The notes beneath the pieces were generated by a model, which was not told where the DNA came from, ran no database searches, and was given only the letters and a program-made list of their open reading frames with translations. Below, piece after piece: positions 48,390-60,101 of a DNA stretch of 64,000 bases (position 1 is its first letter; each line of letters begins with the position of its first letter). Source of the stretch: an uncultured Alphaproteobacteria bacterium (GTDB lineage Bacteria; Pseudomonadota; Alphaproteobacteria; Rhizobiales; Aestuariivirgaceae); contig CAVZHN010000015.1 in NCBI GenBank assembly GCA_963775095.1, positions 173,547 through 237,546 of the forward strand, in the 5' to 3' direction. The translations under genes were made by a program, and so were the position numbers.

Positions 48390-48484
48390 GTCATCCCGGC
48401 GCAAGCCGGGACCCACTGACAATTTTTCAATGGGGCAGCGCTTGCTGAACGGGCTCACTGGGTCCCGGCTTTCGCCGGGATGAC
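48390..48484. repeat. REP/RIME-like inverted doublet
   Basis: GTCATCCCGGCGCAAGCCGGGACCCA (48390-48415) and TGGGTCCCGGCTTTCGCCGGGATGAC (48459-48484). Confidence 0.9.
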
Positions 48485-48528
48485 GGTTGTTGGGAAGCGT
48501 TACTCAGCGTCTTTCGCGTACTTTCGCC

Positions 48529-48690
48529 TCATTCTCCTGCGACATTTCCACAAACGACTTCTCCTGTCAGCAACTTGCGCAATTCCGGCAAATCACGCGG
48601 CGGCGCTTCCAGGGCGAGTTGAAACCGCTCCCACTGTTCGGCGTTCAGGTAGATCACCCGTTTTTCTTCAAATTCCGTTGCGTCATCCAT
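48529..48690 (-). CDS. DUF1778 (TacA-like) antitoxin C-terminal-only protein or fragment, 53 aa
   Basis: Manual translation MDDATEFEEKRVIYLNAEQWERFQLALEAPPRDLPELRKLL...; below the ORF-track cutoff. Confidence 0.6.
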   Translation of the reverse strand: MDDATEFEEKRVIYLNAEQWERFQLALEAPPRDLPELRKLLTGEVVCGNVAGE

Positions 48691-48701
48691 GGCCAAACGT
48701 T

Positions 48702-49063
48702 ATGACACAGGAACAAGAACGCGTCGAGACGGCCTCAATGCAAGCTTCTCCAACATACCACCGTTGGCTCCGCCAACATCTTCGCCGACATCGGCCTTCC
48801 CAATGCCGAGGAGCATCTGATCAAGGCGCAGCTGGTGGTGAAGATCGACACTCTGATGAAAGCCCGCAAACTCAAGCAGTGCTGACGCCGCCAAGCTGTT
48901 TGGCGTCAAGCAACCCGACATCTCTAAGATGCTGCACGGCGATTTCCGCCAATTCTCCGTCGAACGCCTGATGCGGTTTCTGGTGGCGCTTGGGCAGGAT
49001 GTGGAGATTGTGGTGAAGCCACAGAAGGTGAAGGGAGAGGCGGCGGCGCTAAGGGTAGCGTGA
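48702..49063 (+). CDS. XRE/HigA-like HTH antitoxin; indels at about 48755 and 48880
   Basis: GSANIFADIGLPNAEEHLIKAQL...AAKLFGVKQPDISKML.G.FRQFSVERLMRFLVALGQDVEIVV. Confidence 0.85.
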
Positions 49064-49178
49064 TGAATTATGAGACACACAAGGCAACATTGCCGATGAA
49101 GAGTTCCCCAGCATGCCCCATGCGGTTCAGGTGCGGCAAGCGGAATTTATTCGCGCTAAATTACCGAAGGGTTAACTC

Positions 49179-49930
49179 ATGACTAAAGGCAGTATCCACG
49201 AAAAACTTCCCAGACGTCGTAAAGGATCTTGCCCAAGCACTATCAGAACAGCAACGAAGTGGCAAACCGTATGTGGTTTCTCTGTTTTGGCATCACTATC
49301 CTTGTGATCGCAAATCTCAATCCAGCTAGAAATAGCAACTCGATTGACTTTCTGGGTGTAACACTGACACAAGAGATTCATCTGGCAGCAGCAATAGCAC
49401 TGTTGCTCGAACTTCGCCATTCTATGGCTAGCGAAGGCTCGAATCACAACGTTTAAATTGGGACGACATATCGCGAACTTGTTGATCCGCAAGGTACTCA
49501 ACGAGTCTGAACACATACTAGCCAATTCTACTTCAATGAAAGCTGCTGCGTTCTATCTGCTAAAGTCAAACTACAGCCGAATTCACCCAATATTCCACCA
49601 CATCGATCCGGACGGAAGTCAAAGCCGCTACACGCTAATTAGAGGCTCATAGACATTGCATACTCTGCTGTTCCATCGGGTAGCGAATAATACTCTCAGT
49701 GCATAATGGTTAACTGGCTTATCTAAACAGCGCCAATGGCGGTCCAGTGAATGGGTGACTGTGGTGTTACTAGGCAATTACAGGACTGTTTTCCGCTTTT
49801 CAACGTGCGTCCTCTGTTACTACGCATTAGTACGGACTCGATCTTCCGGAAACTTGAAGGCCTATCACACGAGTTTGACAATGACTTCCTGTTACTTGCG
49901 AATTGCTGGCACTTGGGCATTTCGCTTCCC
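49179..49930 (+). pseudogene. AT-richer foreign segment with a broken putative membrane-protein gene
   Basis: Visible drop in GC; short hydrophobic ORF pieces (49229-49456, 49458-49652) that appear to continue across frames. Confidence 0.4.
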
Positions 49931-51588
49931 TCACCGCGCAAACTGCTTGTACTTGATCCGCTTCGGCATCACGCTGTCTTCGCCCAGCCTGCGCTTCTTG
50001 TCTTCCTCGTAGTCCTGGAAATTCCCTTCAAACCATTCGACGTGGCTGTCGCCTTCGAAGGCCAGAATGTGCGTCGCCAATCGGTCCAGGAACATGCGGT
50101 CGTGGCTGATGATGACGGCGCAGCCGGCGAAATCTTCGAACGCCTCTTCGAGCGCCGCCAGGGTTTCGGTGTCGAGGTCGTTGGTCGGTTCGTCTAACAG
50201 CAAGACATTGGCACCGCTCTTCAGCATCTTGGCCAAGTGCACGCGATTGCGCTGGCCGCCCGACAGCGTGCCGACCTTCTGCTGCTGGTCGCCGCCCTTG
50301 AAATTGAAGGCGCCGGTATAGGCGCGGGAGTTCATCTCGCGCTTGCCGAGATAGAGCACGTCGTTGCCGCCGGAAATCTCCTGCCACACCGTCTTGTCGG
50401 GATCGAGCGAGTCGCGGCTTTGGTCGACGTAGCCCATCTGCACGCTCTCGCCGAACGAGATGGTGCCCGCGTCGGGAAGCTCCACACCCGTCAGCATACG
50501 GAACAATGTGGTTTTGCCCGCGCCATTGGGCCCGATGATGCCGACGATACCGCCGGGCGGCAGCTTGAAACTGAGATCGTCGATCAGCAGCCGGTCGCCA
50601 TAGGCCTTGCTCAGGCCCTCGACGGTGATGACATTGTCGCCCAAGCGCTCGCCCGGCGGAATGATGATCTGCGCCGTCGTTGACTTGAGGCGCTCGTCAT
50701 TGGCCTTGATCAGTTCGTCATAGGCCTTGAAGCGCGCCTTGGACTTGGCCTGCCGCGCCTTGGGCGATGAAGCGATCCACTCGCTCTCGCGCTCGATGAC
50801 TTTCTGCCGTGCTGCGTCCTCGCGCGATTCCTGGGAAAAACGCTTGGCCTTGGCCTTGAGATAGGCGGAATAATTGCCCTCGTAGGGAATGCCGCGGCCA
50901 CGGTCGAGTTCCAGAATCCAGCCCGTCACATTGTCGAGGAAGTAGCGGTCGTGGGTAACGATGAGAATCGAACCCGGATAATCGCGCAAGTGATGTTCAA
51001 GCCAGTTCACCGATTTCGGCGTCCGAGATGGTTGGTCGGCTCGTCGAGCAGCAGGAGATCGGGTTTGCGCAGCAGAAGCTGGGTGAGCGCTACCCGGCGC
51101 TTTTCGCCGCCCGACAGATTGTCGATTGACGCATCCCCCGGCGGGCAGCGCATGGCGTCCATCGCCTGCTCCACCTGGGCCTCGAGGTCCCACAGGTTCT
51201 GGGCGTCGATCACGTCCTGGAGCTTCGCCGCCTTGTCGGCGTTCTCCTCATTGTAGTCCATCATCAGCGCGTTGTAGTCGTCGAGGATCGCCTTCTTGGC
51301 GGCGACCCCTTCCATGACGTTGCCCATGACATCGAGTGCGGGATCAAGCTCCGGCTCCTGCTGCAGGTAGCCGCAGGTCGCACCTTCGGCGAGCCACGCC
51401 TCGCCGTTCCATTCCGTGTCGAGCCCCGCCATGATGCGCAGCAACGTCGACTTGCCCGAGCCGTTGGGGCCCAACACACCGATCTTGGCGTCCGGGTAGA
51501 ACGACAGGTGGATATTCTCAAGAACCTTTTTGCCACCGGCATAGGCCTTGGTGAGGCCTTGCATGTGATAGATGAACTGGCGCGCCAT
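49931..51588 (-). CDS. ettA: Energy-dependent translational throttle ABC-F protein; extra bases at about 51015 and 51024
   Basis: MARQFIYHM, two ABC domains (GPNGSGKS / LSGGEKRR; GPNGAGKT / LSGGQRNR), HLDAES restored by removing two bases, [16 protein letters not shown]. Confidence 0.96.
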
Positions 51589-51625: not shown

Positions 51626-52462
51626 CTAGCCCGCCCGTTTCACAAGGGCAATGCCGTTACGAGTGCTCCCCGGCCGAGCCGGCCTGTGCTGTTCCTCGGC
51701 CATGATCTTCTTCTGGTATCGGCCCTGCACGATATCGACGATGAGCAGCGCTCCCACCACGAAGTAGAACGTGGTTTTGGCCATCGGTTCCACCGGGAAA
51801 CCGAAGAACGCGAGATGCGCGATGTGGCCGCCTTCGGCCAGCAGCATGACGCCCACCAGCAGCAGCACGAACAGGCCAAGCACCTCATACATCCGGTTCT
51901 TCTGCAGGAAGGCCGCCACGTGTTCGGCCAGCGCCACCATGAGAATGCCGGAGAGCACGATGGCCGTGGCCATGACGATGAAGTTGTTGGTGAGCGCCAC
52001 CGCCGACAACACCGTGTCGAACGAAAACACGATGTTCATCACCATGATCCAGAACAGGGCGCGGGCGACGGTGGAATGTTTCGGCCCCGACCCCTCCTCA
52101 TGCTCAAGATCGTGCACCGCCAGCATGTGGAAGATTTCCTTGAGTGCGGTGTGAATGAGAAATGCCCCGCCCGCCAGCACGATCAGGCTGTGGCCGCTGA
52201 CGCTGGCCTCAAACACCGGCAGGTGCACGCTGAACAGCGGCGACTGGAAGGCGCTGATCAATTGCAGCACCACGAACAGCAGCGCGATGCGCAGCAGGAT
52301 GGCGAAGATCATGCCGACGCGGCGCACATATTTCTGCTGCGCCGGGGCGACCTTCTTCGCCTCGATGGAAATATAGAGAAGATTGTCGAAACCCAGCACC
52401 GTTTCCAGCGCCGTGAGGACCATCAGGGTGAAGAGATTCTCGATTGTGAAGAGGTCGGTCAT
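51626..52462 (-). CDS. TerC-family integral membrane protein
   Basis: LETVLGFDNLLYI, FSFDTVLSAV, LLLVGVMLLAEG. Confidence 0.93.
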   Translation of the reverse strand: MTDLFTIENLFTLMVLTALETVLGFDNLLYISIEAKKVAPAQQKYVRRVGMIFAILLRIALLFVVLQLISAFQSPLFSVHLPVFEASVSGHSLIVLAGGAFLIHTALKEIFHMLAVHDLEHEEGSGPKHSTVARALFWIMVMNIVFSFDTVLSAVALTNNFIVMATAIVLSGILMVALAEHVAAFLQKNRMYEVLGLFVLLLVGVMLLAEGGHIAHLAFFGFPVEPMAKTTFYFVVGALLIVDIVQGRYQKKIMAEEQHRPARPGSTRNGIALVKRAG

Positions 52463-52956
52463 GATTCTGGCGGATTAGCGCCCTTTCGCTCCATAAACAA
52501 CCACAACGCGACAGCGCCGGTACAGACCGCGGCGACCGCCAGCGCCACGGCGATGCCTCCGGTCTCCGGGCTGACCGGCAACATGCCGGTGAGCCCGGCG
52601 AATAGCATCACGCAACTGGCGGTCACGAACACCGCCACCAGCGCCGCCAGCTTGATCCCGGTTCCGCTTGACCGGCTCATCGTCACCACGCTCCACAATG
52701 CCGCCGCCAGAAACGGCGGGCCGCCGACCACCGCCACGGTGGTCAGGGTCACATAGGCGCCATCCATGCTGCCGAGAAAGAACAGACTGCAGCCGCCAGT
52801 GAACAGGGCGGTAAGGATGGCCGCTGCTGCGCCCAATACGCGAAGTCCCGAATGCCGGGGCTTGCCCTCGCCTGCCCGCCGCCGTTCGTGGCGCTCGAGC
52901 AGCCACCACAGCACGGCGATGAGCAGCAGCGGGCCAAGGAAGACAATGCTATACAT
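52459..52956 (-). CDS. Membrane protein with internal LFTGGC motif (paralog 3)
   Basis: 165 aa, about five hydrophobic segments, Cys56 in ILTALFTGGC; overlaps both neighbours. Confidence 0.8.
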   Translation of the reverse strand: MYSIVFLGPLLLIAVLWWLLERHERRRAGEGKPRHSGLRVLGAAAAILTALFTGGCSLFFLGSMDGAYVTLTTVAVVGGPPFLAAALWSVVTMSRSSGTGIKLAALVAVFVTASCVMLFAGLTGMLPVSPETGGIAVALAVAAVCTGAVALWLFMERKGANPPES

Positions 52957-53201
52957 CAGGGCTTCGCCTCCGGTTCCGCCTTTGCCTTGCGTTTTTCGCG
53001 GTCAATCCGCCACCCCTTGCGCAGCATGAACCAGCCCGCCACCAGCGGCAGCACGCCGAAGGGCAGCCAGACGCCCAGCATCAATCCCGGCTCCTCCACC
53101 AGCACTTCCACGCCATTGTACACTGTTGCCAGAAACACCAGCGTGCAGCCGCCGCCGAACAGCATCAGCAGCGCCCCCAGGATCATGAGCAGCACGTGCA
53201 T
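52956..53201 (-). CDS. Small membrane protein with LFGGGC motif (paralog 2)
   Basis: 81 aa, hydrophobic leader ending in Cys19, further TM, basic tail. Confidence 0.8.
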   Translation of the reverse strand: MHVLLMILGALLMLFGGGCTLVFLATVYNGVEVLVEEPGLMLGVWLPFGVLPLVAGWFMLRKGWRIDREKRKAKAEPEAKP

Positions 53202-53564
53202 CTAGAGGTTTCGCCAGTAAACGAAGGTGAAGGCCCCCTTGAGGGCGAAAAGCAGGACCGGCAAGCCGATGAGCAGGAAATCCTCGGTGTTGTTGAGGCC
53301 GACCTGGGCGATCAGTGGCAGCGACATCGCCACGACCAGGGCATCGAGGATGACCAGGGTGAGGAAAGCGCCCTTCCGCACCTTCATCTTCCCCCACAGG
53401 GCGCCGATCACCACCACGTTGAGAAGCGCCAGCCCGCCGGGGATAACGGCGAGCGGCGCCGCGAAAATCGCACCCCCGATGCCGCTGCCCGCGAAAATCG
53501 TCAGCGCGCAGCCACCAGCGAACAGCACGATGATGGCGCACAGGATGGTGAGAAGGATTTTCAT
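53202..53564 (-). CDS. Small membrane protein with LFAGGC motif (paralog 1)
   Basis: 120 aa, MK plus hydrophobic leader ending in Cys19, further TM segments; ATGA overlap with the radical SAM stop. Confidence 0.8.
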   Translation of the reverse strand: MKILLTILCAIIVLFAGGCALTIFAGSGIGGAIFAAPLAVIPGGLALLNVVVIGALWGKMKVRKGAFLTLVILDALVVAMSLPLIAQVGLNNTEDFLLIGLPVLLFALKGAFTFVYWRNL

Positions 53565-54973
53565 GCCGCGCCCTTCGACCGCGCCATGCGCTTGCGTGCC
53601 GCTTCGTCGCGGTAGAACAGGTTGTAGGTTTCGAACGGAATGATCTGCCCCGCCGGTGTCACGAAATGGATGCAGGACCGCTTGACGCGGCTCAAACAGA
53701 AATTATGCGCGTCCATGAACTCGACGATGGCAATGCGGAAGATGTTTTCATAACCGAAACCCTCCGGCACCGGCACTTCCGGCAGGCAGCACAGGAGCGC
53801 GTTGAGCTTTTCCGGATTGTTGCATTCCGCCGTGGCCAGCGAGAAGAAATTGAGCACCTGCTTGTGCAGGTCCGGGAACTTCTCGAAGGTGATGGCGTTG
53901 GGCAGCGCCTCTACCAGCATGTCTTTCGGAAAGAACGAAGTGATCGGCGCGATCCTGTCGCCCTTCCGCAGCGCATAGCCGATGGCGATCGATTCCGGAT
54001 TGCACGGCAAGGGAATGATGTCGCCCTCGCCGAACGGGGTTTTCGCTGCGATGATCTTGCGGCGAATGTCGGAGAGCACGATGCGGTCGGTGCCCGGGTC
54101 GAAATTCTCGTTCCGCCCCGCATCCTGGATCGGCTGGAAGGTGATGCCGCGCACGCATTTCCATTGGAGCGCATAGTTGATGATGTCGCCCAACTCGTCG
54201 TCATTCACCCCGGCCTTCACCACGACAACCAGCGTTGTCGAAATCGATTCCCGTTCAAGGGCTTCCAGCGCTTCCCTGCGAATCCGCGTGAGGTCGGCGC
54301 CGCGCAAGGTCTTGTGAACCGAAGCCCTTAGCGAGTCGAATTGCAGGTAGACTTCAAAACCCGGAGTCAAAGTCTTGAGCTGACTCACGAATTCCGGGTC
54401 CTGGGCGATGCGGATGCCGTTGGTGTTGAGCATCAAATGCCGTATCGGCCGGGCCTTGGCGGCTTTCAGAATGTCGATGATCTGCGGATGAATGGTCGGC
54501 TCGCCACCGGAAATTTGCAAAAGGTCAGGCTCGCCCTCGCTGGCCACCAGCGCATCCATCATGCGCTCGATTTCGGCCAAGGGCCGGTGCGCCGTGTGGG
54601 CCGTCGAACTGCCGGCAAAACACACCGGGCACGTCAGGTTGCAGGCCTCGTTGATGTCGATGAGGGCGAGGCAGGAATGCTGTTCATGGTCCGGGCACAG
54701 CCCGCAATCATAGGGACAGCCCTCCTCGGTACGGGTCTGCGGCGCCAGAGGCCGGTCGCCGGGCTTCAGGTAGTCGTGGCACAACTTGTAGTAGTTGATG
54801 TCGGTCGAAACCAGGCTCTTCTCCACACCATGGGTGCGGCAGCGCTTCTGGTACCACACCTTGCCGTCGTCGAAGATGATCTTGGCCGGAACCAGCGCCA
54901 GGCACTGCGAGCACAGTGACGTCGTTTGCCCATAGAACACATAGGGCGCGATCTTACGGATGGGGGCGTTCAC
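53561..54973 (-). CDS. Radical SAM protein, Tes/GDGT-MAS (MJ0619)-like family
   Basis: CSQC...CRTH, CPYDCGLCPDH, CNLTCPVCFA (CxxxCxxC), SGGEPT, NTNG, YLQFD, C-terminal CC and RSCIH. Confidence 0.88.
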   Translation of the reverse strand: MNAPIRKIAPYVFYGQTTSLCSQCLALVPAKIIFDDGKVWYQKRCRTHGVEKSLVSTDINYYKLCHDYLKPGDRPLAPQTRTEEGCPYDCGLCPDHEQHSCLALIDINEACNLTCPVCFAGSSTAHTAHRPLAEIERMMDALVASEGEPDLLQISGGEPTIHPQIIDILKAAKARPIRHLMLNTNGIRIAQDPEFVSQLKTLTPGFEVYLQFDSLRASVHKTLRGADLTRIRREALEALERESISTTLVVVVKAGVNDDELGDIINYALQWKCVRGITFQPIQDAGRNENFDPGTDRIVLSDIRRKIIAAKTPFGEGDIIPLPCNPESIAIGYALRKGDRIAPITSFFPKDMLVEALPNAITFEKFPDLHKQVLNFFSLATAECNNPEKLNALLCCLPEVPVPEGFGYENIFRIAIVEFMDAHNFCLSRVKRSCIHFVTPAGQIIPFETYNLFYRDEAARKRMARSKGAA

Positions 54974-55667
54974 GGGGTCCTCCGATCATCGCAACCGAAT
55001 AAATCACGAGTCCCGCGCAAATGAAATGGAAGAGATTGAAGGGCCCGAGAACCGTGCCATAGGGCTTGAGGAATTCCCACAGGAAGCGCTGGGCGCCGTA
55101 GTAACCGGCCAGCAGATAGAAGCCGTTGCTCATGAAGAATCGCTGCCGGCGGCCAAGCATGATGAGAGAAAAAACCAGGAACGCCGCCATGGCGAAGCTT
55201 TCATAAAGCTGCACCGGATGGCGGGGAATGCCATCGCCGAAATCATAGCCCCACGGAAGCGCGGTGGCGATGCCGTGGGTCTGGTCGTCGAGCCCTGACA
55301 GGAAGCAACCCCAGCGGCCTACCATCACGCTTGTCGCAAACGCCGGCACGAAAATAAGCCCCGTCGACCCTTTGATGCCGGAATACCGCTTAAAGACTTC
55401 GATTGCCACAATCGCCCCGGCCAGCGCCCCCACGATACTGCGGCCCACACCCGGCGCACCCGTGAGCCACAGGTTGAGGCTCCCTGCCCCGAACCCGCCA
55501 GCCACCGCCCCAAGGATCAGCGCCAAGGCGTAGGCATAGCCTGCGCTTTCAATCCGTGCTGAAGCTTCCGCCAGCCGCCAGCGATAGGCGGCAAATGTCA
55601 TGGCCATCGCTGCCGCCGCCGAAAACAGATCAAAGAGTGTGTGGACGATCATGACAACAGGTATCAC
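54954..55667 (-). CDS. Divergent prolipoprotein diacylglyceryl transferase (Lgt) family protein
   Basis: GRWGCF, LPWG, RHPVQLYES, RFLWEF; GRSIVGAL replaces the canonical GMSFHGG. Confidence 0.88.
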   Translation of the reverse strand: MIPVVMIVHTLFDLFSAAAAMAMTFAAYRWRLAEASARIESAGYAYALALILGAVAGGFGAGSLNLWLTGAPGVGRSIVGALAGAIVAIEVFKRYSGIKGSTGLIFVPAFATSVMVGRWGCFLSGLDDQTHGIATALPWGYDFGDGIPRHPVQLYESFAMAAFLVFSLIMLGRRQRFFMSNGFYLLAGYYGAQRFLWEFLKPYGTVLGPFNLFHFICAGLVIYSVAMIGGPRERPHP

Positions 55668-55792: not shown

Positions 55793-57943
55793 ATGCTTAG
55801 ACTCGACAGCTGGAAGTTCCTGCTTATCGTGGCGCTGCCGCTGGCGGTCGCGACTTTGGCGGTCAGCATCTTCACCTTTGACCTCATGTCGCGCGTGACG
55901 ACTGGCGCCAACCAGGCGGATCACGAAAAGACCCAGCAGATCGTGTTGTCGGCACTAAACGCCGCCCAGCAGCAGATTGCCAATATGGCCACCGATAACT
56001 CCTACTGGGACGACGCCGTCCGCCAGTTTTATGCAAAAGACCTCGACGAAGACTGGGTAGCCGAAAGCTATGGGGTGCCCACCGAAGATGGCGTGAACTA
56101 TCACCTGATGCTGCTGGTCGATAGGGCAATGCCTGAAGCAGTGACCGGATACCGCGCCGGCGAGCAATTTCGTCCCAATCTCAGTACTTATTTCAAATCC
56201 GGCCTGCTTGGCTTGATCGCACCATTGCCGTCCAACCTGGTTGATCACGCTTCCCGCGGGGCCCTGATGCAGACCGCCGACGGAATTGCCGTGGTTGCGG
56301 CCGCGCCGATCGTGCCCACCTCCGAAGACGTCAAGGTCGAAGCGAAGGAAGCCCGCTACCTCGTCTTTGCCCGTTTCCTGAACGAAGACGTGCTCCGGCA
56401 GATCGGCGACCAATATGTGCTCCAGGATCTGAAGCTGCTGCCCCTCGAGGAAGCCCCTTCCGGCGCCACTCTCCTGCAAGGTTTCGACGGCCAGCCGGTG
56501 GCCGCCGTCGCCTGGAAGGAGAGCCGGCCGGGCGACGCCGCATTTCGCTCGGTATCGCTGCTGGCGGTGGTGGCGCTCGGCATTCTCGCCGCTGTCATGT
56601 TCGGTATCGGACTTCTGTGCTGGCGGCTCTTCCGCGACATTGGCAGGAGGGAGCGCACGTCCCGCCACGCGGCACTCCACGACAACCTGACCGGCCTGCC
56701 CAATCGCGCCGGGCTGGTGCAGCATCTGCATGCGAAACTTGCAGAAGGAAACGAACTTGCCCTGGCATTCGCCGACCTCGACGGCTTCAAGGAGGTCAAC
56801 GATACCTACGATCACGAGACCGGCGACACTCTCATCCGCGCCGTGGCCGAAGGCATGCGCTATCTGGGAACCGGCGACGCCTTTGTTGCCCGGCTTGGCG
56901 GCGACGAATTCGTCGCTGTATTCACTGGCCAGGCCGCAGACACCCAGGTCGAGAAGTTCTCGTCAAACCTGATTTCATTGCTGCACACTCCATTCGACCT
57001 CGATGGCCGCCACGCTGCGGTCGGTGTCAGCATTGGAATCGCCCATGCAGGCACCGGGTTGACGGTTACCGAAGTCATGCGGCGGTCCGATGTCGCCATG
57101 TATGAGGCAAAGCGCCTCGGCAAGAACCGCGCGGTGGTCTACGAGCCAGCCATAGACAGCGCGCGGATTGCCAGTGCGGACATTGCCAGACACTTGAAGC
57201 AATTCATCGGCGACGGGACGATGGCCATCGCCTATCAGCCTATCGTATCCTCGGAGACCGGGCAAATCGTCGCCGTCGAAGCCCTGGCGCGCTGGCCAGC
57301 CGGTTTGCAGCCCACCGTGACACCCGACCGGTTTGTTGCCGTTGCCGAATCAAGCGGCCTCATTGATGAACTCGGCGAGGCCATCCTGCGCCGCGCCTGC
57401 ACCGATGCCGCGGGTTGGGGTGAGTTGCGGCTCAGTGTAAACGTTTCGCCGGTCCAGCTCCGCGACCCGGATTTCGTGACGCGGGTGCTCAAGGTCCTTG
57501 GCCAAACCGGCTTCAGCCCTGAGCGCCTCGAACTTGAAGTTACCGAAAGCGTGGTTCTTGACGACTTCGAGCGGACCCGCCGGCAATTTGCCGCCTTGCA
57601 CGCCGCCGGCATCGCCATTGCTCTCGACGACTTCGGAACCGGTTTCTCGAGCATCGGCTACTTGCGCAAACTGCAGTTCGACAGAATCAAGATCGACCGC
57701 TCCATCACCTCGAAAATACTGAGCAGCGTGACCGAACAGCAGATCGTCCAGGGTACGGTCCTGATGGCCTCGGCACTAACCGCCAGCGTCACCGCCGAAG
57801 GCGTGGAGCAGCGCGCCTCGATACAGATACTGCGGCTTGCCGGTTGCCGCGAGCTACAGGGCTTTTATTTCCACAAGCCGATGACGGCGCAAATGATCGG
57901 CATGTTGCTGAGCGCACCGCAGACGGCAGCGTTGGCAGGCTAG
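55793..57943 (+). CDS. Membrane-bound CHASE4-GGDEF-EAL c-di-GMP enzyme
   Basis: TM, DNSYWDDA periplasmic domain, TM, HDNLTGLPNR, DLDGFKEVND, RLGGDEF, VEALARW, DDFGTGFSS, EGVE, QGFYF. Confidence 0.95.
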   Translation: MLRLDSWKFLLIVALPLAVATLAVSIFTFDLMSRVTTGANQADHEKTQQIVLSALNAAQQQIANMATDNSYWDDAVRQFYAKDLDEDWVAESYGVPTEDGVNYHLMLLVDRAMPEAVTGYRAGEQFRPNLSTYFKSGLLGLIAPLPSNLVDHASRGALMQTADGIAVVAAAPIVPTSEDVKVEAKEARYLVFARFLNEDVLRQIGDQYVLQDLKLLPLEEAPSGATLLQGFDGQPVAAVAWKESRPGDAAFRSVSLLAVVALGILAAVMFGIGLLCWRLFRDIGRRERTSRHAALHDNLTGLPNRAGLVQHLHAKLAEGNELALAFADLDGFKEVNDTYDHETGDTLIRAVAEGMRYLGTGDAFVARLGGDEFVAVFTGQAADTQVEKFSSNLISLLHTPFDLDGRHAAVGVSIGIAHAGTGLTVTEVMRRSDVAMYEAKRLGKNRAVVYEPAIDSARIASADIARHLKQFIGDGTMAIAYQPIVSSETGQIVAVEALARWPAGLQPTVTPDRFVAVAESSGLIDELGEAILRRACTDAAGWGELRLSVNVSPVQLRDPDFVTRVLKVLGQTGFSPERLELEVTESVVLDDFERTRRQFAALHAAGIAIALDDFGTGFSSIGYLRKLQFDRIKIDRSITSKILSSVTEQQIVQGTVLMASALTASVTAEGVEQRASIQILRLAGCRELQGFYFHKPMTAQMIGMLLSAPQTAALAG

Positions 57944-57986: not shown

Positions 57987-60101
57987 CTATTCCTGATGGT
58001 CCAGGGCTTCCTTGATGATCTTGTGCAGATCTTCCCGGCGGTAGGGTTTCATGATGATGAACCCCTCGCGGAACCGCGGCTCTTCCTGGTGCACCATGGC
58101 GCCCTTGGGATAGCCGGAAGTGTGGACGATCTTCAGCCCCGGCCGCATCGAGCGCGCCGCCTGCGCCAGGTCGAAACCATTCATGCCGCCTGGCATGACA
58201 ACGTCCGAGAACATGAGATCGACATCGGGGTTTTCCTGCAGCCTGGCCAGCGCCTGCAGGCCGTCCTCCGCCTCGATCACTTCATAGCCGAAATCCGTGA
58301 GGAAGCCGCAGGCCACGGCCCGCACCGCTTCCTGGTCCTCGACCACCAAGAGCTTGGGCGCCGTCTTCACCGGCAAGGTGAGCGGCGGAGCTTCTTCGAT
58401 GACGGCGGGTTCTGGCGGTAGCGCCGCAACCTCTTCCACCGTCGGCTCAGCTACCGCCGGCATCTCCTCGCCGGCCGCAAACTGGCGCGGCAGATACATC
58501 TTGATGGCCGTGCCGTGGCCGACTTCCGAATAGACGCTGATATGGCCGCCCGACTGCTTGATGAAACCATAGACCATGGCAAGCCCGAGCCCCGAGCCCT
58601 TGCCCGTTTCCTTGGTGGTGAAGAACGGCTGAAAGACTTTCTCCAGCACTTCGGGAGGAATGCCGGTGCCAGTGTCCGAAACCGCCACCATGACATAATG
58701 GCCGGGTTCAACTTCGGGATGCCGCTCGGCATAGGCCTGGTCAAGATAAACAGGCTGCGTCTCGATGGTGAGATGCCCGCCTCTCGGCATGGCGTCACGG
58801 GCATTGATGCACAGATTGAGCACCGCCGACTCGAGCTGCGAAGCGTCGATGATGGCCTTGGGCTCGCCCGCCATGGCATCGACCTTGAGTTCGATGGTTT
58901 CGCCGATGGTGCGCGACAGAAGCGGCGATAGGCCCTTGACCAGATCGTTGATCCGAACCTCGCTGGGCTCCAGCGCCTGCTTGCGGGCGAACGCCAGCAT
59001 TTGCCGCGTCAGGTCGGAGCCCTTGCGCGCCGCATCGATCGCTTCGCCGAGGCGGCGCATGCCGCGCTCGTCGCCATCGATTTTTCCTTCCAGCAGCTGC
59101 AGATTGCCGATCACCACGGTCAGAAGATTGTTGAAATCATGCGCCAGGCCGCCGGTCAGTTGGCCGATGGCTTCCATCTTCTGGGCCTGTTGCAAATTGC
59201 GCTGCGACTGCAGTTTCTCGGTATTGTCAAGGACCTGAACGGTCAATTGCTCGATCTCGCCGTGCTCGTTGCGCACCAGCGCGACCGTTGTCGAACAGCT
59301 GATGGGCTTGCCGTCGGGCAACACAAACCGCAGGTCCTGATAGAAGTTCACCAGCGAGCCCTGAATGAGTTCGCCCACTCCCTTGAGGAAAGCCTGCCGG
59401 TCTTCCCGGTACAGGAGTTCGTCGAACGCCTGAAGGCCGGCTTCCGGCCTGCGCCTTAGCATGGTCCAGAACGCCTGGTTGGCCACCGCGATTTCGCCGG
59501 TGGGGGCGACCAGCGCCATGCCATGCGCCGCTTCCTCGAAGGCGCTCTTGAACCGCCGGTCATCGACCACCGTAACCGCCTGCTCGACCTTGATCGATAC
59601 CGGTTCGGTCAGCACGCAGACCGAGCGCTCGATGCGGCCCTTGTCGCCGCGATAGGCATTCATCGACAGGAGGATTTGCGCCGGCGCTCCATCCTTGCGC
59701 ATGATGGTGAAAACTTCGTCGCGGCATTGGCCGCTCTGCAGATAGGCCGGCATCACCTTCTGCACCAGCCGCGCCCGCAATTCCGGTGCCAGAAGTTCCG
59801 TGAACATGCGGCCTTCGACGTCCGAAAGCTGATACCCCAGCGCCCGCGACCACTGGCTGTTGACCGATGTGATGCGGCCCGACCCATCCATGGCATGCAT
59901 CAGCACCGGCATGTTGTGCAGCAATTGCTCGTAGACCTTGCCGTTCTGATCCGGGAAGAACGGAAGATAGGCCGCGTGCGTCACCGCCGGTCTTTCGATC
60001 TTCCACGTTGGGGCAGACTGGCGCAACTCATCCCAACCCTGGAATGGTTCGGCAAGATTGCTGGTCTTCATCGGCGATGTCATAAAATTGGCCTTTGGCA
60101 A
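57987..60101 (-). CDS. Cytoplasmic PAS-PAS hybrid histidine kinase with C-terminal receiver
   Basis: Two PAS/PAC domains, AHDFNNLL H-box, NLCINARDAM, DTGTG, GSGLGL, receiver VVEDQ...SDVVMPG; start may be 60083 or 60071. Confidence 0.94.
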   Translation of the reverse strand: MPKANFMTSPMKTSNLAEPFQGWDELRQSAPTWKIERPAVTHAAYLPFFPDQNGKVYEQLLHNMPVLMHAMDGSGRITSVNSQWSRALGYQLSDVEGRMFTELLAPELRARLVQKVMPAYLQSGQCRDEVFTIMRKDGAPAQILLSMNAYRGDKGRIERSVCVLTEPVSIKVEQAVTVVDDRRFKSAFEEAAHGMALVAPTGEIAVANQAFWTMLRRRPEAGLQAFDELLYREDRQAFLKGVGELIQGSLVNFYQDLRFVLPDGKPISCSTTVALVRNEHGEIEQLTVQVLDNTEKLQSQRNLQQAQKMEAIGQLTGGLAHDFNNLLTVVIGNLQLLEGKIDGDERGMRRLGEAIDAARKGSDLTRQMLAFARKQALEPSEVRINDLVKGLSPLLSRTIGETIELKVDAMAGEPKAIIDASQLESAVLNLCINARDAMPRGGHLTIETQPVYLDQAYAERHPEVEPGHYVMVAVSDTGTGIPPEVLEKVFQPFFTTKETGKGSGLGLAMVYGFIKQSGGHISVYSEVGHGTAIKMYLPRQFAAGEEMPAVAEPTVEEVAALPPEPAVIEEAPPLTLPVKTAPKLLVVEDQEAVRAVACGFLTDFGYEVIEAEDGLQALARLQENPDVDLMFSDVVMPGGMNGFDLAQAARSMRPGLKIVHTSGYPKGAMVHQEEPRFREGFIIMKPYRREDLHKIIKEALDHQE

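Follow-up and report, generated by a model that had tools for sequence, protein, structure and literature searches.

What does a protein of the prolipoprotein diacylglyceryl transferase (Lgt) superfamily do when several residues that Escherichia coli Lgt absolutely requires have been replaced? The question is raised by an open reading frame (ORF) on the reverse strand, at 54954..55667, of a 64,000-nucleotide stretch of DNA (the whole of it called the window here) from an uncultured alphaproteobacterium of the Aestuariivirgaceae (contig CAVZHN010000015.1, positions 173,547 to 237,546). Lgt is seen as an essential, conserved enzyme with a single function and as a drug target; a second copy is as a rule disregarded as a weak duplicate. 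Our analysis of the window protein and its relatives suggests that they form a widespread Lgt variant, encoded in a conserved three-part module with a radical S-adenosylmethionine (SAM) protein resembling Tes and with small cysteine-bearing proteins, and that this module serves a dedicated protein-lipidation pathway. One large class of Lgt paralogues looks, from sequence comparison, like an enzyme in its own right that has a partner and candidate substrates of its own.

An Lgt-superfamily protein set apart from housekeeping Lgt

The initial annotation had placed here an ORF of 237 amino acids (aa), and such an ORF exists, reading from a GTG codon. Its homologues favour a shorter protein: the probable true start is the ATG at 55652, five codons after the GTG, which gives 232 aa ('MIVHT...') and is the start used in the public gene call and in close homologues. 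The translated protein matched the Pfam family LGT (PF01790) with an E-value of 2.3e-16 and 60.3 bits, passing the gathering score (cut-off 24.9), over profile positions 75-238 only, that is, the last two thirds of the model. The NCBI equivalog models of true Lgt (EC 2.5.1.145; TIGR00544 and PRK00052), with cut-offs of 119-558 bits, scored it at ~30 bits; TIGR00544, the lgt equivalog, gave 29.9 bits against a cut-off of 118.9 and NF000778 gave 29.6 against 334.

A single-sequence phmmer search of the Protein Data Bank (PDB) with the window protein retrieved no Lgt. A profile of 59 members of its clade, which we call the Cys clade, found E. coli Lgt (5AZB) with an E-value of 6e-15 and covered Lgt residues 21-151 and 194-289, i.e., all but the head domain. 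By this near-full-length profile homology the protein is predicted to share the fold of E. coli Lgt (PDB 5AZB/5AZC), with seven transmembrane helices (TMs). The AlphaFold2 (AF2) model, with a mean predicted local distance difference test (pLDDT) score of 96.2, has seven long helices and a short arm helix, and from the positive-inside rule we infer an outward N-terminus and an inward C-terminus, as in Lgt. The window protein is shorter than E. coli Lgt (232 vs 291 aa) and its head domain is about half as long, with ~22 residues between TM4 and TM5 vs ~42. Judged by these profiles and alignments, it is a full-length member of the Lgt superfamily, set apart from housekeeping Lgt. AliA and AliB, archaeal lipoprotein lipidation factors with two conserved arginines, were proposed as distant functional analogues of Lgt (PMC12462473); their similarity to PF01790 is marginal (HHpred 29%) and they have no radical SAM link, whereas the window protein clearly belongs to PF01790. 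Neither the 64-kb window nor any fetched locus contained a canonical lgt, and we assume, from the general essentiality of Lgt in Proteobacteria, that one lies elsewhere in the source genome.

Residues retained and replaced relative to E. coli Lgt

We aligned the window protein with E. coli Lgt (lgt from NC_000913), and the MAFFT and hidden Markov model (HMM) alignments gave the same mapping; window residues in this comparison are numbered on the 237-aa protein. In E. coli Lgt, complementation showed six residues to be absolutely necessary: Y26, H103, R143, N146, G154 and R239 (PMC13251419; PMC4728403). At the start of TM3 the Lgt motif GMSFH103GG is replaced by GRSIVGA (55425..55445, reverse strand), with Val in place of H103, so that the change from SFHGG to SIVGA read in the initial annotation is borne out by both alignments. 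The HGGL motif at this point of Lgt is the proposed binding site of the lipobox peptide (PMC4728403). N146 is replaced by Cys, GRLGN146F being aligned with GRWGCF. Across the whole Lgt signature, G142-R143-L-G-N146-F-I-N-G-E151-L-W-G154, the window protein has GRWGCFLSGLDDQTHG, which keeps G142, R143 and G145; E151 and G154 cannot be placed owing to an indel. Of this remnant, G-R118-W-G-C121 (55305..55319, reverse strand), the Arg and the Cys are invariant in 59 diverse sequences. In TM1, 'HWY26GLMY30' of Lgt corresponds to 'IVH9TLFD13' in the window protein, so that His takes the place of Y26 and Asp that of Y30; the motif H9-T-L-F-D13 lies at 55629..55643 on the reverse strand, and H-x3-[D/E] is found clade-wide. 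The N-terminal WYG had been reported as absent, and the motif is indeed lost, but the helix itself is not missing, as TM1 is there with H9 at the Y26 position.

Other landmarks are conserved. LPRHPSQLYE202 of Lgt aligned with IPRHPVQLYE, of which R-H-P-V-Q-L-Y-E, equivalent to Lgt 195-202, starts TM5 (55200..55223, reverse strand). Y235GAFR239IIVE243FFR246 aligned with YYGAQRFLWEFLK, so that TM6 carries Y190-x3-R194-x3-E198-x2-K201-P (55062..55103, reverse strand) at the donor-lipid headgroup site. The essential arginines R143 and R239 are present as R118 and R194, Y235 and E243 as Y190 and E198, and E202 is also retained; K201 stands for R246, a position at which some true Lgts have Lys as well (PMC13251419). 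The motif reading of the initial annotation, that GR-W-G-C-F, RHPVQLYE and RF..EF are kept, is therefore correct. The residues common to both proteins (G142-R143-x-G145, HPxQLYE202, Y235, R239, E243 and a basic residue at 246) belong to the phospholipid-headgroup cavity. The R143/R239 cavity of Lgt is open towards the periplasmic leaflet; phosphatidylglycerol is bound there, with the glycerol C3 as the point of attack for the lipobox Cys (PMC4728403). Thus, donor-site residues are kept while the surroundings of the acceptor site are systematically replaced.

The initial annotation had reasoned from the loss of the FHGG histidine. The loss is real but is not diagnostic alone, given that the H103 position is Tyr or Trp in genuine Lgts of Firmicutes and Actinobacteria (PMC13251419), and the significance of N146C had been missed. 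Because H103 is not universal among Lgts, Y26H combined with N146C is the more telling departure. The mBio 2026 survey of Lgts records N146 changed to Cys and E151 to Cys or Asp in distant Lgts (PMC13251419). The Lgt of Leptospira interrogans, with Cys at N146 and R143/R239 kept, is partly functional in E. coli (PMC13251419), and a Cys there is hence compatible with diacylglyceryl transfer; it is described as that organism's Lgt for ordinary lipoproteins, and we liken it to the window protein by residues only. Likened by its reported residues only, MSMEG_5408 of Mycolicibacterium smegmatis has the same Y26H and N146C; it is reported as a non-essential second Lgt copy of presumed low activity (PMC13251419; bioRxiv 10.1101/2025.01.07.631728).

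These precedents bear on whether the window gene is a redundant or low-activity second housekeeping Lgt, acting on ordinary lipoproteins as presumed for MSMEG_5408. Around 1,300 genomes contain two copies of lgt, and MSMEG_5408 was suggested to be redundant with MSMEG_3222 (PMC13251419; bioRxiv 10.1101/2025.01.07.631728); the N146C enzyme of L. interrogans partly complements E. coli, and the database name of the window protein is 'prolipoprotein diacylglyceryl transferase'. We nevertheless consider a redundant copy quite unlikely. Its score of 30 bits is far from the lgt equivalog cut-off of 119, PGAP names clade members only 'prolipoprotein diacylglyceryl transferase family protein', which means that they are not accepted as Lgt proper, and the residue signature is tight clade-wide, unlike that of a drifting duplicate. 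While the Y26H/N146C pattern has already been noted in the literature, none of the papers that we searched connects these paralogues with either a radical SAM gene or small proteins dedicated to them, and the three-gene module is undescribed there. The literature on MSMEG_5408 mentions neither a radical SAM partner nor dedicated substrates, and a literature search for its neighbours came back empty.

A clade with its own conserved signature

To place the substitutions in a wider frame we searched for the clade among representatives at 50% identity and obtained 1,496 clusters with a threshold of E<=1e-3 and 557 with the stricter E<=1e-10. Among the best 150 matches, ~80 full-length representatives (<=50% mutual identity) have the same substitutions in nearly all cases, a recurrence that takes the pattern far beyond chance. 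The signature reads H-x-x-F-[D/E] in TM1, G[RK][ST][IV]xG[AG] in TM3 and GRxGC in TM4. Across the clade the H103 position is Val, Leu, Ala or Glu, never His, Tyr or Trp, and in these ~80 representatives HPxQLYE and the Tyr, Arg, Glu/Asp and Lys of TM6 are kept. The TM1 motif H-x3-[D/E] occurs in 294 of 322 clade proteins, the exceptions being mostly truncated gene calls. An alignment of 59 sequences, which share 27-56% identity with the window protein, has eleven invariant columns and twenty with a conservation of 90% or more; R113, C116, Y185 and R189 (232-aa numbering) belong to the former and H4 is at least 90% conserved. By these comparisons the substitutions are clade-wide and under selection, and private decay is excluded.

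The same alignment speaks to the notion of an inactive relic or pseudoenzyme with no catalytic role. The loss of the E. coli-essential Y26, H103 and N146 fits such a relic, but eleven invariant and twenty highly conserved columns do not, the replacing His, Asp/Glu and Cys are themselves invariant, the AF2 model is confident (pLDDT 96), and the G+C content at third codon positions (GC3) and the operon structure are intact. A dead protein is thus very improbable.

The clade spans at least six phyla and is found in Alpha- and Gammaproteobacteria, Planctomycetota, Gemmatimonadota, Bacteroidota, Bacillota, Cyanobacteria and Acidobacteriota. Cultured carriers include Bradyrhizobium japonicum, B. canariense, Reyranella soli, Brevundimonas, Dongia sedimenti, Bacillus alkalicellulosilyticus and Calothrix brevissima. 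The supplement of the mBio survey (PMC13251419) has no entry for the carrier genera Bradyrhizobium, Reyranella, Brevundimonas and Phenylobacterium, and NCBIfam release 20 has no model for the Cys clade or for the small cysteine proteins described below. The window sequence itself occurs only in freshwater-sediment and drinking-water metagenomes, where there are no RNA runs.

Pairing with a Tes-like radical SAM gene

We scanned genomes, one per species, with a 16-sequence alignment as the query, the 59-sequence one being too diverse, and recovered 80 loci whose Lgt-like genes are 45-73% identical. A Tes-like radical SAM gene is adjacent in 78 of the 80, and the contigs of the remaining two end at the Lgt-like gene. 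It mostly lies directly downstream; in one locus it is 3 kb away, and in four (L021, L024, L026 and L027, labelled Planctomycetota or 'Candidatus Kuenenia') it lies upstream. When the ORFs of the ~80 loci were clustered, the Lgt-like and radical SAM genes were the only universal ones. The pairing persists at ~30% identity in an AT-rich metagenome contig (L086), a plasmid of Chondrinema litorale (L090), B. alkalicellulosilyticus (L094) and C. brevissima NIES-22 (L095). Bacteroidota, Bacillota and Cyanobacteria are thereby among the groups that have the gene pair. Canonical lgt, in contrast to the genes of this clade, is linked neither to a radical SAM gene nor to small ORFs with a cysteine helix.

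In the window the partner is a 470-aa radical SAM protein (53561..54973, reverse strand) that resembles the GDGT-MAS/Tes family, as judged by its match to PDB 7TOL. Preceded by GGAGGA, its GTG start falls 20 nt within the Lgt-like gene, and six window genes, from the Lgt-like gene on through a terC-type gene, are translationally coupled. The match to 7TOL, which is MJ0619, the archaeal tetraether lipid synthase, has an E-value of 4.9e-66 (3e-90 with the family profile), and the two proteins have the core fold and the N-terminal metal motifs in common. The window protein contains the Pfam domains Zn_ribbon_HMPTM and Radical_SAM and keeps the rubredoxin-like CX2CX20CX2H, an N-terminal CX3CX2C cluster and the radical SAM CX3CX2C. 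It scored 284 against a cut-off of 450 with the Tes model (NF045702; IPR034474), the three N-terminal metal motifs being exactly conserved, and 304 against 490 with TrsS (NF045646), for which the L086 partner scored 337 against 490. The C-terminal part is rearranged: C438, Met439, C470 and Tyr459 of GDGT-MAS correspond to I416, V417, E448 and F437 (family-wide Ile, Val, Glu/Asp and Phe), and the cysteines conserved instead are C324, C395, C396 and C434. The metal motifs, Met439 and the strictly conserved Tyr459 of GDGT-MAS were described together with its structure (PMC9433317).

Proteobacterial Tes homologues are on record with their function unknown (PMC8941075; PMC9433317; PMC13459092). The linkage gives a concrete genomic context to the bacterial homologues of Tes/GDGT-MAS; what these do has stood as an explicit question since 2022, with consequences for tetraether lipids as proxies of past climate. 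Unlike archaeal GDGT-MAS, the Tes-like proteins are found mostly in aerobic Proteobacteria, which are not known for membrane-spanning lipids. GDGT-MAS made in E. coli binds bacterial phospholipids (PMC9433317). Mss of Thermotoga and Thermoanaerobacter is a radical SAM membrane-spanning lipid synthase that couples the ends of fatty-acyl tails (PMC13459092). Compared by description only, Mss is the sole functional precedent for tail coupling on ester lipids, and no Lgt-like partner or cysteine-helix proteins are described for it.

Obligate adjacency of genes that often overlap is also what would be expected if the Lgt-like protein were a membrane partner, which binds a phospholipid and docks or feeds the Tes-like enzyme. 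The latter would then do the sole chemistry, either a tail-to-tail coupling or a bond between a tail and a small protein, with the small proteins as accessory subunits or as radical SAM substrates. Whole phospholipids are indeed bound by GDGT-MAS, which forms an intermediate with a carbon-sulfur bond (PMC9433317), and two residues of the catalytic cavity that Lgt requires are replaced. In addition, the clade has a segment of its own, V-E-x-x-K ... S-T-G, at the end of TM3 and in the TM3-TM4 loop (55359..55397, reverse strand). This VExxK...STG(D) segment, not found in canonical Lgt, has E85, K88, T97 and G98 at least 90% conserved in A1/A2 and would lie on the cytoplasmic side by the positive-inside rule. 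On the other hand, the kept residues line a periplasm-facing cavity, on the opposite face from the cytoplasmic Fe-S enzyme, and this placement, derived from the positive-inside rule and homology to Lgt, argues against a direct hand-over at the active site. Apparent fusions of the Lgt-like and radical SAM proteins (P0264 and P0164) have long out-of-frame stretches rich in Arg, Pro and Ala and turned out to be frameshifted gene calls. We regard a mere membrane partner, akin to the lipid-presenting partner named in the initial annotation, as possible but doubtful, and two further points against it emerge from the small proteins below.

Small membrane proteins with one conserved cysteine

The module has a third component, unseen in the initial annotation: small ORFs with one conserved Cys. 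Three of them follow the radical SAM gene in the window, all on the reverse strand. The first (53202..53564) encodes 120 aa with ~4 TMs and carries the candidate acceptor MK-ILLTILCAIIVLF-AGG-C19; its start overlaps the radical SAM stop (ATGA). The second (52956..53201), of 81 aa and with the candidate acceptor MHVLLMILGALLMLF-GGG-C19, starts directly after the stop of the first (TAG-ATG). The third (52459..52956) encodes 165 aa with the candidate acceptor ...RHSGLRVLGAAAAILTALF-TGG-C56 and is joined by a TGATG overlap; here a first TM and a loop rich in Arg and Lys precede AAAILTALF-TGG-C56. Their GC3 values of 0.87, 0.85 and 0.80, respectively, are of the coding type (0.80-0.87), and they matched no Pfam or NCBIfam family.

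To measure how regularly such ORFs accompany the gene pair, we used the 61 loci with 2.5 kb of sequence on both sides. In 57 of the 61, small ORFs with a cysteine helix follow downstream on the same strand, compared with 1/61 on the opposite strand, 0/61 and 6/61 in upstream control zones and 3/53 and 6/53 further away, control rates of 0-11%. A stringent filter gave 97 matches in the 292 kb of the near zone vs 4 in 2.08 Mb elsewhere, an enrichment of ~170-fold, and a looser one found 1-6 copies in 70 of the 74 loci with room for them. The consensus L-[FL]-[AGPST]-G-[GLA]-C-[ATSG]-L stands at the end of a helix predicted to run from the inside to the outside. The Cys is 17-22 residues past the last charged residue, which is Arg or Lys in 85% of cases, and this spacing gives the geometry of a lipoprotein signal peptide. 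The box is non-canonical, with Gly at position -2 and, at -3, either a small residue or Pro, vs [LVI][ASTVI][GAS]C. Distant members have the Cys in their final helix, with 5-9 residues between it and the C-terminus ('...LVNTAC-FGYFVFQF', '...LLNGSC-FLLIFTNR' and '...IGAGVC-GSFF'). This defines an unannotated family of small membrane proteins with a lipobox-like intramembrane cysteine. The idea of a redundant Lgt copy leaves the cross-phylum linkage to radical SAM and cysteine-helix genes unexplained, and a Cys so close to the C-terminus, as in several members, is incompatible with the classical signal-peptide route. For the membrane-partner idea the difficulty is that the small proteins have their Cys close to the outer leaflet.

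Two clean natural fusions, P0259 and P0203, tie the small proteins to the enzyme. In both, a helix '...LVAVASWGC' follows the Lgt-like domain, with the same spacing from an Arg, and the protein continues into an extracytoplasmic domain of ~200 aa; at their locus there is no radical SAM gene. Clade members of this fusion type occur without any radical SAM gene, which is at odds with a protein whose sole role is to serve the radical SAM enzyme. The start of TM3 also varies together with the motif of the small proteins: [GAS]RSI[VL]GA pairs with FxGGC, xRSxEGx with LPGxC, GFSMVGG with LTLGC, SHSxxGA with LCGxC or xGLC, and GHSIAGA with [ST]G[LF]C. Such co-variation is consistent with co-evolution of the two partners, short of proof. 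A further protein, P0127 (L089:572-2080, 502 aa), joins an isoprenylcysteine carboxyl methyltransferase-like (ICMT-family) domain to a full Lgt-like domain of the Cys clade. It stands alone on a 2-kb contig and may be an artefact, and we did not use it as evidence.

A proposed lipidation pathway

The initial annotation had proposed altered specificity, for example a dedicated transferase. That proposal gains support from the adjacency of the radical SAM gene, the scores below the lgt cut-offs and the candidate substrates encoded downstream, which fit, and by comparative genomics suggest, a dedicated pathway. Our preferred reading, to which we assign a probability of roughly 0.45, is that a dedicated transferase of the Lgt type lipidates the cysteines of the small proteins and that the radical SAM enzyme remodels lipid tails; the role of the small proteins as acceptors, diacylglyceryl as the transferred group, and the part and order of the radical SAM step are what we infer from gene order and homology. 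A glycerophospholipid, probably phosphatidylglycerol, would be bound in the periplasmic-leaflet cavity, as in Lgt, with its headgroup held by the retained network of Arg, Arg, Tyr and Glu. The diacylglyceryl moiety would then be moved to the conserved Cys thiol of the co-encoded small proteins, the remodelled residues of TM1, TM3 and TM4 taking over thiol activation and reading the non-canonical 'G-x-C' box. The Tes-like enzyme, whose relatives link tail ends, may alter acyl tails; these would belong either to the donor lipid, within the inner leaflet, or to the lipidated product.

Several observations weigh against this pathway. Four of the six residues essential in E. coli are altered or cannot be aligned (Y26, H103 and N146, with G154 uncertain), and with essential residues changed the chemistry may differ from diacylglyceryl transfer. 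The relation between enzyme and substrate rests on gene context, geometry and the two fusions, and the co-variation of motifs is confounded by shared ancestry. Permissive lipobox rules accept 'FAGGC', so canonical Lgt might also process the small proteins. The cavity is predicted to face the periplasm while the radical SAM protein has to work in the cytoplasm, and the connection of the two steps is unexplained. Foldseek with the AF2 model did not recover 5AZB/Lgt, a miss that we put down to the method because the clade profile does match 5AZB. Two loci also depart from the expected arrangement. A fusion-type member (L091:4973-7392), with the Lgt-like domain, the 'WGC' helix and a 200-aa outer domain, has no radical SAM gene nearby. 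In the AT-rich contig L086 the Lgt-like/radical SAM pair is followed by ordinary-looking secreted proteins and lipoproteins, without a small cysteine-helix ORF.

A bolder version of the dedicated pathway is that the module makes a ribosomally encoded lipid-protein conjugate, in which the Cys is S-alkylated with diacylglyceryl and the tail ends are then joined by C-C coupling by the Tes-like enzyme. A site made of H9, D13 and C121, possibly metal-binding, would activate the intramembrane cysteine. The zinc ligands of protein farnesyltransferase are Asp, Cys and His, and the His, Asp/Glu and Cys triplet of the clade resembles them. The small protein would end covalently tied to a macrocyclic or membrane-spanning lipid, and in members with the Cys 5-9 residues from the C-terminus the outcome could instead be the release of a short lipopeptide. 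We think this version unlikely; if true, it would for the first time provide the proteobacterial Tes homologues and the Y26H/N146C paralogues of Lgt with a function.

Neighbouring genes and further observations

In L086 (4631-8161) lspA, encoding signal peptidase II, and ispD stand directly before the Lgt-like/radical SAM pair, and in some lineages the Cys-type enzyme may serve general lipoprotein processing. The fusion gene of L091 overlaps an upstream gene for a predicted lipoprotein of 343 aa (canonical 'AVAGC' lipobox, HExxH motif), and a divergent FabH-like gene lies beside it. In five loci of close relatives (L001:10687-11127, L003:10687-11127, L010, L012 and L016) a 146-aa membrane protein with four helices and no family is encoded between the Lgt-like and radical SAM genes. 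The window, whose Lgt-like and radical SAM genes overlap, has no copy at this point, and the rest of the 64 kb contains no homologue either.

Downstream of the small ORFs lies the gene of a TerC-family membrane protein (51626..52462, reverse strand; Pfam TerC E-value 2.6e-38), ATGA-coupled to the last of them. Its place in the operon is confined to the window and close relatives (9 of the ~80 loci), and it is outside the conserved module. TerC, EttA, a histidine kinase and a hydantoinase were all considered as parts of the module and rejected, as they occur in 9-33 of the ~80 loci and reflect local synteny only.

Next to the TerC gene, the ABC-F gene ettA (49931-51588, reverse strand) has a frameshift near 51025-51037. 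Its two parts encode residues 1-188 (51588-51025) and 182-551 (51037-49934), each ~90% identical to the intact 551-aa protein of relatives, and the split gene is either a pseudogene or an assembly error. Beyond it, at ~48400-49950, the G+C content falls to 0.53 vs ~0.61, with short unconvincing ORFs and no tRNA or Rfam match; the search for RNA genes at 46-58 kb of the window likewise gave no Rfam family and no tRNA.

On the other side of the module, a divergent CHASE4-GGDEF-EAL gene (55793-57943, forward strand) lies between the Lgt-like gene and a gene for a hybrid of PAS histidine kinase and response regulator (57987-60101, reverse strand). In the relatives L001-L004 this kinase gene immediately precedes the Lgt-like gene, with both on one strand, and the CHASE4-GGDEF-EAL gene of the window therefore looks like an insertion.

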